The translations under genes were made by a program, and so were the position numbers. Under the pieces are notes generated by a model, which had not been told where the DNA came from, did not search any database, and saw only the letters and a program-made list of their open reading frames with translations. A DNA stretch of 44,710 nt from a virus: UHGV virus genome UHGV-0061377; one strand, written 5' to 3'. This document shows positions 5,268 to 8,357 of the stretch, in pieces (position 1 is the first letter of the stretch; the number at the start of each line of letters is the position of its first letter).

Positions 5268-5558
5268 TTAGTGATTCAGGCCGTTACCGCGTCCGTCGAG
5301 AAAAACTTCCACGAGCAAATCACGGGTATAAGTGCGCTCGATGCCGCGATGCAGATAAAGCCGTCCGCGTAAATTAGCTGATGCAGTCCAGGTACCATCT
5401 TTGTGTTTGACCAGCATTCCTGGCATGACCGCACCTCGATTAACGGTCTGCGTTCCGTAATGTTGATGAACCATAAAAACTCCTGCCCGTAAGCTGGGCT
5501 GCTGAACATATAGAGACTTCTGCGCGTATTCAGGCGGTGGATGGCCGCCGGTTGTCAT
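5268..5558 (-). CDS. Hypothetical protein in the kil/cIII position downstream of pL
   Basis: 96-aa reading from an internal ATG with a GAGG about 11 nt upstream. The longer 136-aa reading starts at TTG. No lambda Kil or CIII similarity recognised. Confidence 0.4.
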   Translation of the reverse strand: MTTGGHPPPEYAQKSLYVQQPSLRAGVFMVHQHYGTQTVNRGAVMPGMLVKHKDGTWTASANLRGRLYLHRGIERTYTRDLLVEVFLDGRGNGLNH

Positions 5559-5751
5559 AACTAAGCCGCCTCGTTGAAGCGACTGAGGTATGAGGTGTTG
5601 AGTTGATTTCAGCTGGTCACACCGACGTTCACACGTCCGTTTCACCCCTCGCACTCCCCGGAGCCTGCTGAAATTCAAGCTGCGGATCTAAGCGGTCATC
5701 GCAACGGTGAATCAGGTGGTTGCCGTATCGTTGTGTTGTTGCGATGAACTC

Positions 5752-5806
5752 ATTTAAAACTATGGTTGTTTTACCGTCAACAACAAAAGTTGTTTCATTG
5801 GTTGTT
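5752..5806 (-). promoter_or_regulatory. OL-like operator with candidate pL promoter
   Basis: Near-palindrome ATGGTTGTT-N8-AACAACAAA at 5762-5787, paralogous to the OR palindrome, plus an extra GGTTGTT half-site at 5800-5806. On the minus strand, TTGACG (5780-5775), 17-bp spacer, TTAAAT (5757-5752). Confidence 0.5.
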
Positions 5807-5920
5807 TTAGATATAACTGGTTGTATTTAGGATGGATTTATTTTGTGACTTGCATCGCATAGCGATAACTGAAGCGGGGGGTATGGTGGTTTTTTGAACG
5901 GTGTGTGATGAGGGGAGGCA

Positions 5921-5946
5921 AAAGAAAACCCGGCACGACGGCCGGG
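5921..5946 (-). terminator. Intrinsic terminator ending the cI-side operon
   Basis: GC-rich hairpin cccggc-acgacg-gccggg at 5929-5946, followed on the minus strand by TTTTCTTT. Lies directly after the stop of the membrane-protein gene. Confidence 0.6.
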
Positions 5947-5954
5947 GAGGGGGG

Positions 5955-6461
5955 TCATTTTAATCTATCAAGGAGTGACTCTCTTTCCTTCTTCTCTGAT
6001 TCTCTTCGGTTTAATAACGCTTTAAACTCTTGAAGCTCAACCATTATTTTATGAACGAATACACTGGTATAGAGAGAAATAAAGAGTAATCCACCTGAAA
6101 TTTTTAAGACCCTGAAGAGTAGGGCTTGATCATTTGTGCTTGCTATTAACCCCAAGATTACAAACAAAGTTGAAAATACATAGAAAGCTAATAATAAAAC
6201 CAATTTCAGTCTCTTGGATTTGACTATTGGCACTAATCGCCTAACCTCACTAGGGGTTAAAGACGAGTGGTCATTGGCCTCATTTGCCTTAAAAATGGCT
6301 TGTATACAATATGATAATGGCAATTGCATGAGTCCAACCACAGCCCACGGAGCAGTTAGGACAACACCCGGTGTAATATAGCCCAATGCTGACTTGAACA
6401 AAAAGTAACCAGCAAAATAGAAGACCAACATACCAATAAGGTGGATGATGTTCGATTTCAT
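5955..6461 (-). CDS. Small integral membrane protein (4 predicted TM helices, charged coiled-coil-like C-terminal tail); distal gene of the repressor-linked module
   Basis: 168 aa. Hydrophobic segments at roughly residues 5-22, 29-57, 85-108 and 119-136, then a tail rich in E/K/R (NRRESEKKERESLLDRLK). AT-rich codon usage. No family recognised. Confidence 0.65.
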   Translation of the reverse strand: MKSNIIHLIGMLVFYFAGYFLFKSALGYITPGVVLTAPWAVVGLMQLPLSYCIQAIFKANEANDHSSLTPSEVRRLVPIVKSKRLKLVLLLAFYVFSTLFVILGLIASTNDQALLFRVLKISGGLLFISLYTSVFVHKIMVELQEFKALLNRRESEKKERESLLDRLK

Positions 6462-6482
6462 TATCGCCCTCCTTTTGGTAGG

Positions 6483-7109
6483 TTATTTTGCAACCAATTC
6501 TCCGGCATCAAGTTTTGAGAACAGCCACTTATGCATTTTTAAGAATAAATCATTTTCATCAATAATGCCATTGTTATATTCAACGCTAATTTTTCCGGAT
6601 AATTTTATCTCTTTTCCCGTTATTTCCCCACCGCCTTGAAGTTTGATGCTAATATCATCCTCATCTAGATGTCGTAGTGAGGTAGCAATACTGTCTATAA
6701 CAGCTTGACCGCTATCATTTGTTTTTCTGAAGTATGTAATCTCGAGGCTTACTTGTAAATTGGCCTCATCTAATGAATCTTTAATGTTTATATCATTTGC
6801 CCAGTTATCGCCAAAAAATGCTTTTAGTAGCGCACCTCCTTTCCCTATTGGGCGGTATTTTATTGTCTTCACCGAACCATTTGAAAAGGAGGGTGTTTGG
6901 TTCTCTGAATTTTTAACTTCTGAAGTAATGGGTAATCCACCAATTTTTATGCTCTTGGCTGGTGCTTTCTCCATTTTTTTCATCGTTTCTTCGGATGGCT
7001 TATCTTGAAGCATTAACACAGATTCTTTTTCATCTGTGAATGTATTAATTAGCCAATTCAAATGCGCCTCAAGCTCCCTTGCTCGAAGCGATGTGGATTG
7101 AACGATCAT
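6483..7109 (-). CDS. Hypothetical soluble protein; middle gene of the repressor-linked module
   Basis: 208-aa ORF, AT-rich, rich in K/N/I/E/D. No obvious Shine-Dalgarno. The reading frame stays open upstream to the poly-A tract of the preceding ORF. Confidence 0.55.
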   Translation of the reverse strand: MIVQSTSLRARELEAHLNWLINTFTDEKESVLMLQDKPSEETMKKMEKAPAKSIKIGGLPITSEVKNSENQTPSFSNGSVKTIKYRPIGKGGALLKAFFGDNWANDINIKDSLDEANLQVSLEITYFRKTNDSGQAVIDSIATSLRHLDEDDISIKLQGGGEITGKEIKLSGKISVEYNNGIIDENDLFLKMHKWLFSKLDAGELVAK

Positions 7110-7147
7110 GACATGGTTGTTTAGTACACCAAAATATAAAATTGAAT

Positions 7148-7504
7148 CTACAAACTCTCTTTTTTGTCACTACGTTTATCTCCATCAATAATTATATCAT
7201 TAGACGTGATGGAGTTAATGTCATAAAATTTAACATTATCACTAAGCTCTAATAGAGACTGGCTTTTGTCTTTTTCAAATAAAACCAGTTGCCCAAAAAG
7301 TATAGTTTTGTATGTGTCGCTTTTATTTAAGAAACGATACCCCGAATTTTCATCTGAAGGTGTTATTTTTTCTTGTCTACTAAGTACTTTTTCTGCAACG
7401 CCGCCCTCACCTATAATACTAAGTAGTATGTTTTGTAATGATGATTTGCTGTGTGGGATTACTGCTTTTTTATAATGAACGACTTTTTGTCTGTTATCTT
7501 TCAT
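7148..7504 (-). CDS. Hypothetical protein; first gene downstream of cI in the module (possibly the N-terminal part of a frameshifted longer gene)
   Basis: 118-aa ORF, AT-rich. Ends 6 codons after an A6 tract (plus-strand T6 at 7160-7165). Confidence 0.5.
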   Translation of the reverse strand: MKDNRQKVVHYKKAVIPHSKSSLQNILLSIIGEGGVAEKVLSRQEKITPSDENSGYRFLNKSDTYKTILFGQLVLFEKDKSQSLLELSDNVKFYDINSITSNDIIIDGDKRSDKKESL

Positions 7505-7561
7505 TGCTATAGTCCAACTAGTATTGAATAAATAAACACAGTAAAGACATAAAAATTTCTT

Positions 7562-7591
7562 ATAGCTACCGATAACGTAATCGGTAGCTAT
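7562..7591. promoter_or_regulatory. Perfect 12-bp-stem hairpin between cI and the downstream module
   Basis: atagctaccgat-aacgta-atcggtagctat. On the minus-strand transcript it is followed by AAGAAAUUUUU. Candidate terminator, attenuator or protein-binding site. Confidence 0.5.
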
Positions 7592-7626
7592 TACAAATCA
7601 ACCAAAGGTAATTCTTTACATACTAC

Positions 7627-8316
7627 CTACCCATGCTTCCTGTAGGTCTGCGGCATGCTCCCAATAACTTTCCCGAAGATAAACACCCGGTTCATCTCGT
7701 CTTTCTCAATTGGGTCCCACGGCGAGTAGCTCTTGTTATCAGAGATAACCAGTAGCTTATCCTTCATCATTTGCAGGCGCTTTACATGGGCTGTGTCGTC
7801 GTACAGAAACGCATAGATACCATCACCGTCGAAAGATTTAACTGTGATATCAACGAACAGCAGATCACCTGGTTCGATCGTTCCTGACATGCTGTCACCA
7901 CGCACGTTAATGATGCGGATATTTTCCGCCTTCCTACCATCGAACATGTGACGAGCATCGTCAAACGAGTACTCAACCGAGCGTAGAACTTCTACAAACT
8001 CACGGTTGATGACTCCCGGCCCAGCACTGACTTCTATATCAAGAACGTCAATCTTAAAGTATTTGGAATGGCTGACAGTTGATAGTATTGGTTGCACTGT
8101 ACTGTCTGACATATTTCCAACGCCAGAAGATAACCATTCTGCGCGCACACCCAAAGCGTTCGCGATCTCCACGATTTTAGTTGTTTGGTTAGCTTTCCCT
8201 GTTTCGATTTTCTGAATAGCAGCTTGGCTAACCCCGACCAAATCCCCAAGCGCCTTTTGTGTAAGGCCTCGCGCTAATCTGGCTTCTTTAAGTCTTTCTG
8301 AGAGTGTTGTTTTCAT
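7627..8316 (-). CDS. cI: CI-type prophage repressor (N-terminal HTH_XRE, C-terminal S24 LexA-like autopeptidase)
   Basis: Trimmed to the internal ATG (MKTTLSERLKEARLARGLTQKALG...). HTH at the N-terminus; S24 Ser/Lys dyad context (VRGDSMSGTIEPGDLL ... HVKRL). Divergent from the cro-like gene across the operator. Confidence 0.9.
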   Translation of the reverse strand: MKTTLSERLKEARLARGLTQKALGDLVGVSQAAIQKIETGKANQTTKIVEIANALGVRAEWLSSGVGNMSDSTVQPILSTVSHSKYFKIDVLDIEVSAGPGVINREFVEVLRSVEYSFDDARHMFDGRKAENIRIINVRGDSMSGTIEPGDLLFVDITVKSFDGDGIYAFLYDDTAHVKRLQMMKDKLLVISDNKSYSPWDPIEKDEMNRVFIFGKVIGSMPQTYRKHG

Positions 8317-8357
8317 AGTCCAAATGTACAACCAAGGTTTTATTCCATCAAACGAAA

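Follow-up and report, generated by a model that had tools for sequence, protein, structure and literature searches.

Two genes, the first frameshifted, in the cI–OL/pL interval of a Perceval-like lambdoid prophage: a probable RexAB-type exclusion cassette

The virus genome UHGV-0061377, analysed here as one stretch of 44,710 nt (the window), carries a small minus-strand module directly downstream of a cI-type repressor gene. The original prediction, made from the sequence alone, read this module as three open reading frames (ORFs), at 7148–7504 (118 aa), 6483–7109 (208 aa) and 5955–6461 (168 aa). Coordinates and strand are correct, but the three-gene reading is rejected, as a single 340-aa gene accounts for both the 118-aa and the 208-aa ORF and the module thus consists of two genes, the first of them frameshifted. 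We refer to the repaired 340-aa gene as A (6483–7504, minus strand; rexA-like by structure search, and split here into 118 + 208 aa) and to the 168-aa gene as B (5955–6461, minus strand). The repressor (7627–8382, minus strand) is identified by HTH_3 and Peptidase_S24 domain matches, and its RefSeq homologue starts at ~8316. A and B are separated by 21 nt (6462–6482, minus strand), within which a strong Shine-Dalgarno sequence, AAGGAGG, lies 6 nt 5' of the B start codon. The leftward unit closes with an intrinsic terminator (5929–5946, minus strand), a 6-bp all-GC stem (CCCGGC-CGTCGT-GCCGGG) with a T-run, as had been described at first sight. The order of the transcription unit is therefore cI, A (340 aa, cytoplasmic), B (168 aa, four transmembrane (TM) helices) and terminator, all on one strand. 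Beyond the terminator, two copies of the operator half-site AAACAACCAT (5762–5771 and 5798–5807; the pair is AAACAACCAT and AAACAACCAA) mark an OL/pL-like region (5762–5807, minus strand), and an OR-like operator palindrome with the same half-site, ATGGTTGTT-N7-AACAACCAT, is found at 8358–8382 between cI and a cro-like gene. The module consequently lies between cI and the OL/pL-like region, in agreement with its predicted position. A further exact copy of AAACAACCAT occurs within A, between the ORF pieces (7113–7122, minus strand); it may mean nothing, and ~3.8 half-site matches with at most one mismatch are expected by chance across the window.

The single gene A is supported both by its protein family and by near-identical relatives. 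On the phrog_3482 profile (344 positions), the 118-aa ORF aligns to positions 3–117 and the 208-aa ORF to positions 138–343. Escherichia coli prophages that are 99.9% identical to the window over 5700–7700 are annotated with a single 1023-nt coding sequence (CDS; 340 aa) and then one of 507 nt, as is phage Perceval from strain LF82. Over the same interval the window and the E. coli 317 prophage differ at two places, a substitution at 5764 (outside the genes) and one missing base. The missing base turns T7 into T6 on the plus strand, i.e., A7 into A6 on the coding strand, at 7160–7165, just 5' of an invariant R-E-F motif. The run is intact in Perceval and in every one of the 42 complete E. coli genomes that have the module. 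Because the only other difference from E. coli 317 over 5700–7700 is one non-genic substitution, the lesion in A must have arisen very recently, unless it is a homopolymer sequencing error. If the frameshift is genuine, A is cut short at residue 115 and A-dependent exclusion would therefore probably be off, with B still intact.

The frameshift falls in a run of A encoding Lys-Lys, and an A6–A7 tract is present at the same place, upstream of the invariant R-E-F, in relatives from Escherichia, Enterobacter, Serratia, Klebsiella, Morganella, SfIV and Methylobacter (loci L001, L004, L007, L035, L072, L078 and L082). This position may be a hotspot of slippage or of sequencing error. In PHROGs each half of A has a family of its own, phrog_29708 (119 positions) and phrog_33638 (221 positions), so split copies of A occur in other phage genomes. 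A lambda-type rexA beside an intact rexB is also broken, into pieces of 68 aa and 152 aa (locus L069:1632–2476), and one Sodalis contig carries rexB without rexA. Loss of the putative sensor gene while the membrane gene is kept may be a recurrent event.

Matches between the window and other lambdoid phages end at 5946 and restart at 7627, and the cargo cassette, consisting of the intergenic region, A and B, therefore spans 5947–7626 (1.68 kb). The AT-rich composition noted initially is evident from a G+C content of 0.32–0.39 over 5800–7600 vs. 0.508 in the whole window, and from a G+C content at third codon positions (GC3) of 0.26–0.39 in the cassette genes vs. 0.50–0.57 in cI, bet and gam. 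Overall, the view of a repressor-linked, horizontally acquired module in the rexAB slot is supported. A survey of this slot in related prophages, which the original prediction had proposed, found variable cargo downstream of cI: the slot is empty in phage Turner, holds rexAB in lambda and a pair of genes in Bievrevirus 4A7. The latter pair (Escherichia phage 4A7, NC_049946, L086:2004–3420) encodes a 353-aa hypothetical protein and a 125-aa ASCH-domain protein, the 3' end of the adjoining cI matches that of the window at 94% over 72 nt, and the pair is a candidate for another uncharacterised lysogen-expressed module.

Comparison of close relatives indicates mosaic exchange around a fixed cassette. 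A and B of the E. coli 317 prophage (L001) and of Perceval (L002) are 100% identical at the nucleotide level, which renders the ratio of nonsynonymous to synonymous substitution rates (dN/dS) uninformative for this pair, and the region overall is 97.6% identical. The cI genes adjoining A differ (690 nt in E. coli 317 vs. 693 nt in Perceval), so cassette and immunity allele reassort. The replication side of the window is also unlike that of E. coli 317, as there is no YdaT-like gene between cro and O.

Gene A encodes a protein with no TM segments that belongs to a large family, with 130 clusters at 90% identity and, in a profile search, 796 representatives at 50% identity with E ≤ 1e-3 (584 of them with E ≤ 1e-10). 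A family of this size implies real genes rather than chance ORFs. The clusters derive from Enterobacterales, Methylococcales, Aeromonas, Pseudomonas, Halomonas and others, and all are named 'hypothetical' and have no Pfam domain. The AlphaFold2 (AF2) model of A has a mean predicted local distance difference test score (pLDDT) of 70.9 and is well defined roughly at residues 1–90, 120–180 and 280–340. Searched with Foldseek against 350,542 PDB chains, it returned lambda RexA (8TWQ, chain 8twq_B) at rank 1, with an E-value of 1.3e-3 and a probability of 0.96. The model thus shows A in a predicted two-domain fold of the RexA/RdgC type; RdgC, IML3 and CHL4 are reported fold relatives of RexA (PMC11077077). 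A/B pairs that are 46–51% identical to the E. coli proteins were also found in metagenome-assembled genomes labelled Actinomycetes and Ureibacillus (L033 and L041; contigs of 3.5–4.8 kb), where they are more likely binning contaminants than genes of true Gram-positive hosts.

For the product of B, the four hydrophobic segments and charged C-terminal tail described from the sequence are recovered as four hydrophobic helices, modelled by AF2 as four long helices (pLDDT 85.3), and a 32-residue C-terminal helix with nine K/R and seven D/E residues. The central loop (residues 58–85) contains six K/R and the two short loops none, a charge distribution that predicts an inner-membrane protein with N-in/C-in topology. 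Across 40 B homologues, down to 16–20% identity, the most conserved positions are G18, P48, E72, R74, R75, K83, F146, R153, K158 and L164, mostly in the central cytoplasmic loop and the C-terminal helix; in the basic central loop, E72 is invariant in the family and R74, R75 and K83 are kept in at least 85% of its members. Against the BFVD library of viral structures, the B model returned at rank 1 a 165-aa protein of mycobacteriophage Sbash (probability 0.98, TM-score 0.48, E-value 0.1), which is identified as gp31, the sole 165-aa CDS in that phage. In gp31, defence is lost when R70A or D73A is introduced into the central cytoplasmic loop (PMC6426596). E72, R74, R75 and K83 of B sit in the equivalent loop.

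The profile and structure searches suggested as a check by the original prediction gave divided answers, with a structural match for A (8twq_B at rank 1) and profile comparisons below 1% probability. Using hhalign, the B family (13, then 40 sequences) scored <1% against a 14-sequence RexB alignment, and a 256-sequence A alignment scored <1% against lambda RexA and a few diverged fragments, a RexA profile that is too thin (effective number of sequences, Neff, <2) to decide. An IMG/VR scan for a deeper RexA/RexB set yielded only near-identical lambda copies, and looking beside rexB in other genomes gave one orphan RexB, one split RexA and one partial RexA. Neither the Pfam models PF15969/PF15968 nor the PADLOC models PDLC02339/02340 matched A, B or their relatives at E ≤ 1, whereas lambda RexA and RexB as positive controls scored 1e-97 and 8.5e-92. 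A Pfam scan for RexA, DUF4747 and RdgC likewise gave no matches in 91 close and 138 distant A homologues, and profile comparison of the A and B families with Sbash gp30/gp31 found no match. Since Sbash gp30/gp31 themselves match no Pfam RexA/RexB model, 'Rex-like' denotes a structural and functional class and not a sequence family.

Two other systems with small membrane proteins were considered and do not fit. Kiwa (KwaA with four TM helices and KwaB with DUF4868) gave no Pfam or PADLOC match, and its membrane gene comes first, whereas the order here is soluble and then membrane. For an S-4TM effector of the CBASS type (PF18159), S_4TM matched only two of 13 B homologues, at an E-value of 0.036, and there is no cyclase nearby. 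The PADLOC '4TM effector' model scored 0.0014 for one Acinetobacter homologue.

In 38 of the 39 loci surveyed across Gammaproteobacteria, a B-type gene lies directly 3' of A, and in the remaining locus A has an unrelated partner with four TM helices. This gives the RexAB-type layout of adjacent, co-oriented genes, first a cytoplasmic one and then one of ~140–190 aa with four TM helices. The loci lie in cargo slots of prophages or satellites. About 13 of the 39 are linked to a repressor, which is of the cI/S24 type in Methylobacter, Pseudomonas, Morganella and an Acinetobacter phage and consists of a helix-turn-helix (HTH) domain only in Rac-like prophages of Enterobacter. In others the pair occupies the Q–lysis slot on the opposite strand (Serratia, Shigella phage SfIV, Stx2a phages by the stx region, and K. 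aerogenes beside HicAB), the end of a P4-like satellite (Aeromonas) or the edge of an integrative island (Oceanospirillum). Judged by gene placement, this distribution over cargo hotspots fits a defence or exclusion role.

Among characterised systems, lambda RexA/RexB has the same arrangement, with cI, a cytoplasmic protein, a four-TM protein, terminator and OL/pL in this order and co-oriented with cI, and it shares lysogen expression with the membrane partner in excess. However, there is no detectable sequence or profile similarity between the two pairs. A (340 aa) is longer than RexA (279 aa) and has a low-confidence insertion (~190–252), while B (168 aa vs. 144 aa in RexB) adds a charged helix of 32 residues at its C-terminus and has a basic central loop that is longer. 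Sbash gp30/gp31 and gp44/gp43 of Gordonia phage CarolAnn are validated Rex-like systems, with gp31 as the RexB-like effector (PMC6426596 for Sbash). They resemble A/B in size (372/165 aa in Sbash and 370 aa for the A-type protein of CarolAnn vs. 340–372/161–187 aa in the A/B family), in having charged residues that are invariant or critical for function within the central cytoplasmic loop (Sbash gp31) and in the lack of matches to the Pfam RexA/RexB models (Sbash gp30/gp31). Both differ in their source, Actinobacteria, and in having no sequence similarity to A or B, and the Sbash genes are moreover inverted relative to the repressor and apart from it.

RexABpp (PP_5643/PP_5644), in prophage P1 of P. 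putida, is likewise carried by a prophage of a Gammaproteobacterium and lies downstream of a cI-like repressor, but with two additional genes in between. RexBpp has four TM helices like B but is longer (>181 aa), and RexApp is ~37 kDa; for PP_5643, HHpred has given a probability above 95% to 8TWQ/PF15969. The residues mutated in RexBpp (W25, F35, L55, T103, S145, G153 and Y181) match in none of 36 B partners, a comparison that is uninformative about family. The study of RexABpp counted five described Rex-like systems (PMC12894663), to which Sucellos is additional. Sucellos (SclA/SclB), from cassette 68 of the superintegron of V. cholerae N16961, is structurally RexAB-like and Pfam-negative; it needs both of its genes, acts by abortive infection, and the SclB multimer has been modelled as a transmembrane pore (bioRxiv 10.1101/2024.07.02.601686). 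Like A/B, it occurs mostly in enterobacterial prophages and in a P4-like satellite, and it is now a DefenseFinder system; A/B possibly belong to this already described family. There were no Vibrio or Salmonella names among the named A/B homologues listed, and tblastn against plasmids found no Vibrio or integron copies. A phrog_3482 homologue of A in Acinetobacter phage phi1_092021 (PQ859669, L071:2983–3984) is labelled 'DefenseFinder protein', an indirect hint at Sucellos; PADLOC 2023 gave no match for it. The idea that the module is a novel system is not upheld, as Rex-like systems recognised by structure only have already been described (PMC12894663; bioRxiv 10.1101/2024.07.02.601686).

The expected expression in lysogens agrees with published RNA-seq data from an LF82 lysogen grown in lysogeny broth (PMC9928086, supplementary table), which is not the window's own host but carries Perceval, with A and B nucleotide-identical to those of the module. 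Values were 78 for cI, 27 for A and 578 for B, against a prophage background of 5 and ~5–6 for kil, gam and the cro-like gene. The module is thus lysogen-expressed, B ~20-fold over A, while the neighbouring lytic genes are silent. Relative to the prophage background, B is 81-fold and cI 11-fold higher in LF82 (PMC9928086). This surplus of B relative to A implies that a further promoter, processing or attenuation is at work. In lambda, a separate rexB transcript arises from the pLIT promoter, and an excess of RexB over RexA is normal. A consensus scan for an internal promoter of B returned 10 sites vs. 7.8 ± 3.0 expected, and none could be located. The 122-nt spacer between cI and A has a minimum free energy (MFE) of -29.5 kcal/mol (z = -3.0 vs. 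shuffles) and contains a perfect 12-bp hairpin, ATAGCTACCGAT-TACGTT-ATCGGTAGCTAT, with a 6-nt loop and an A/T-rich tail (7562–7591, minus strand). This hairpin is a possible attenuator or partial terminator between cI and A, and partial termination there would explain why A is lower than cI in the LF82 data. In 25 other loci the region upstream of A has no conserved counterpart, so we rejected the hairpin as an element borne by the cassette.

The most likely explanation for these observations is that the module is a two-gene cassette of the RexAB type for abortive infection or superinfection exclusion, horizontally acquired cargo that a Perceval-like lambdoid prophage carries in its cI–OL/pL interval. 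The steps of sensing, gating and exclusion are taken from lambda RexAB, Sbash gp30/31, CarolAnn, P. putida RexABpp and Sucellos, and on this analogy B would form a latent oligomeric channel or pore in the inner membrane and A would act as a cytoplasmic, probably dimeric, DNA-binding sensor. Replication or recombination intermediates of a superinfecting phage, or a phage protein, may trigger A. Once activated, A would contact the conserved basic cytoplasmic loop and/or the C-terminal helix of B and cause it to open, and the resulting depolarisation and loss of ATP would arrest the cell and abort the infection. Several observations weigh against this explanation. A is frameshifted in the window copy, and the anti-phage role of the A/B family is inferred by analogy. 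Homology to lambda RexA/RexB was not found by BLASTP, phmmer against PDB, Pfam or PADLOC. About a third of the A model is of low confidence (residues 100–111 and 190–252), and its global TM-score against RexA is only ~0.3. The match of B to gp31 has a weak E-value of 0.1. Bundles of a few membrane helices readily match one another, and the top 50 BFVD matches of the B model do not include lambda RexB.

The frameshift also bears on whether the module has a current function in this genome. It could be a decaying pseudogene remnant, which we regard as possible but on balance doubtful. Of 43 copies compared, only this one has the -1 frameshift in A, the B homologue of SfIV is truncated by IS1, and the PHROGs families for each half attest to split A copies in other phage genomes, all of which would suit decay. 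However, B and all signals are intact in the window, and the sole further difference over 5700–7700 from the intact E. coli 317 copy is the non-genic substitution at 5764. A related but more speculative proposal, which we consider rather unlikely in its full form, is that the A/B family (~800 clusters at 50%) constitutes a large unnamed branch of the RexAB type distinct from lambda Rex, the actinophage systems, RexABpp and Sucellos, in which B has its own internal promoter and the conserved A6–A7 Lys-Lys tract before REF serves as a recurrent off/on slippage switch for the sensor. If true, such a switch would explain the split copies both here and in PHROGs.

The location of A next to cI, together with its RexA-like fold, raises the improbable alternative that A is mainly a DNA-binding factor that tilts the cI/Cro switch toward lytic growth, with B as an accessory and exclusion as a by-product. 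Lambda RexA modulates the switch independently of RexB, and homologues have been suggested to do likewise (Adams et al., PMC11077077), which would suit the repressor directly upstream in about a third of the surveyed loci. Yet most loci are away from a repressor, in opposite-strand Q–lysis slots, P4-like satellites and islands, and A without B is almost never seen.

The expression data bear in turn on a reversed logic, for which we see a very low probability, in which the cytoplasmic A is the toxic effector and B, in the membrane, keeps it sequestered or neutralised until a phage infects, as in gp30/gp31 of mycobacteriophage Butters. The ~20-fold higher expression of B than of A in LF82 would fit a neutraliser in excess, but an excess of RexB is normal in lambda too. 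It is also consistent with this logic that A is the inactivated gene here and that rexA is split in another locus. Butters provides a precedent among Rex-like systems, but in four of the five described systems it is the membrane protein that acts as effector (PMC12894663), as is also proposed for Sucellos, where both genes are needed and the SclB multimer is modelled as a pore (bioRxiv 10.1101/2024.07.02.601686). Least probable of all is a non-defence membrane function in lysogenic conversion (transport, or envelope and stress) or a toxin-antitoxin pair, with the RexA-like fold as a generic DNA-binding scaffold: host-adaptive morons are common in Perceval (PMC9928086) and weak Pfam matches exist in B homologues (UbiA in two, best E-value 7.5e-6; S_4TM in two, at 0.036), but such matches occur in only two of 13 members and are typical of TM composition, and both the strict pairing with a RexA-fold protein and the recurrent placement in defence hotspots (after the repressor, in the Q–lysis slot, at the P4 satellite end and beside HicAB) point to defence.

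As a probable RexAB-type cassette, the module exemplifies a structurally Rex-like pair in the Perceval-type rexAB slot that Pfam, PADLOC 2023 and RefSeq naming have left 'hypothetical'. The A/B family extends over E. coli (including adherent-invasive E. coli (AIEC) LF82 and probiotic strains), Stx2a phages, Shigella SfIV, Klebsiella, Enterobacter, Serratia, Acinetobacter, Pseudomonas and methanotrophs, and given this wide distribution a functional annotation would propagate to many genomes and aid the prediction of host range in phage therapy. The trigger and gating mechanism of Rex are still unsolved after 70 years, and A/B offer a second deep and diverse alignment for locating contact residues between sensor and channel (in B: E72, R74, R75, K83, R153 and K158). 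For this window itself, the outcome is a known kind of system whose sensor gene is apparently broken.

Two regions outside the cassette deserve mention. The first gene past OL/pL (5268–5678, minus strand) has a counterpart in Perceval, PERCE_41, annotated as phi80-type Kil; its product had no Pfam match, and no gene for an N-like antiterminator is annotated between pL and kil. On the other side, right after the O/P replication genes, a 1302-aa inverse autotransporter of the intimin/invasin type (IAT_beta with Big_1/Invasin_D3 repeats) is encoded at 10766–14674 (plus strand), convergent with a BD-FAE/alpha-beta hydrolase at 14711–15754 (minus strand). G+C is 0.35 at the start of this region, and 10766–15754 looks like a second cargo island, located in the nin region.

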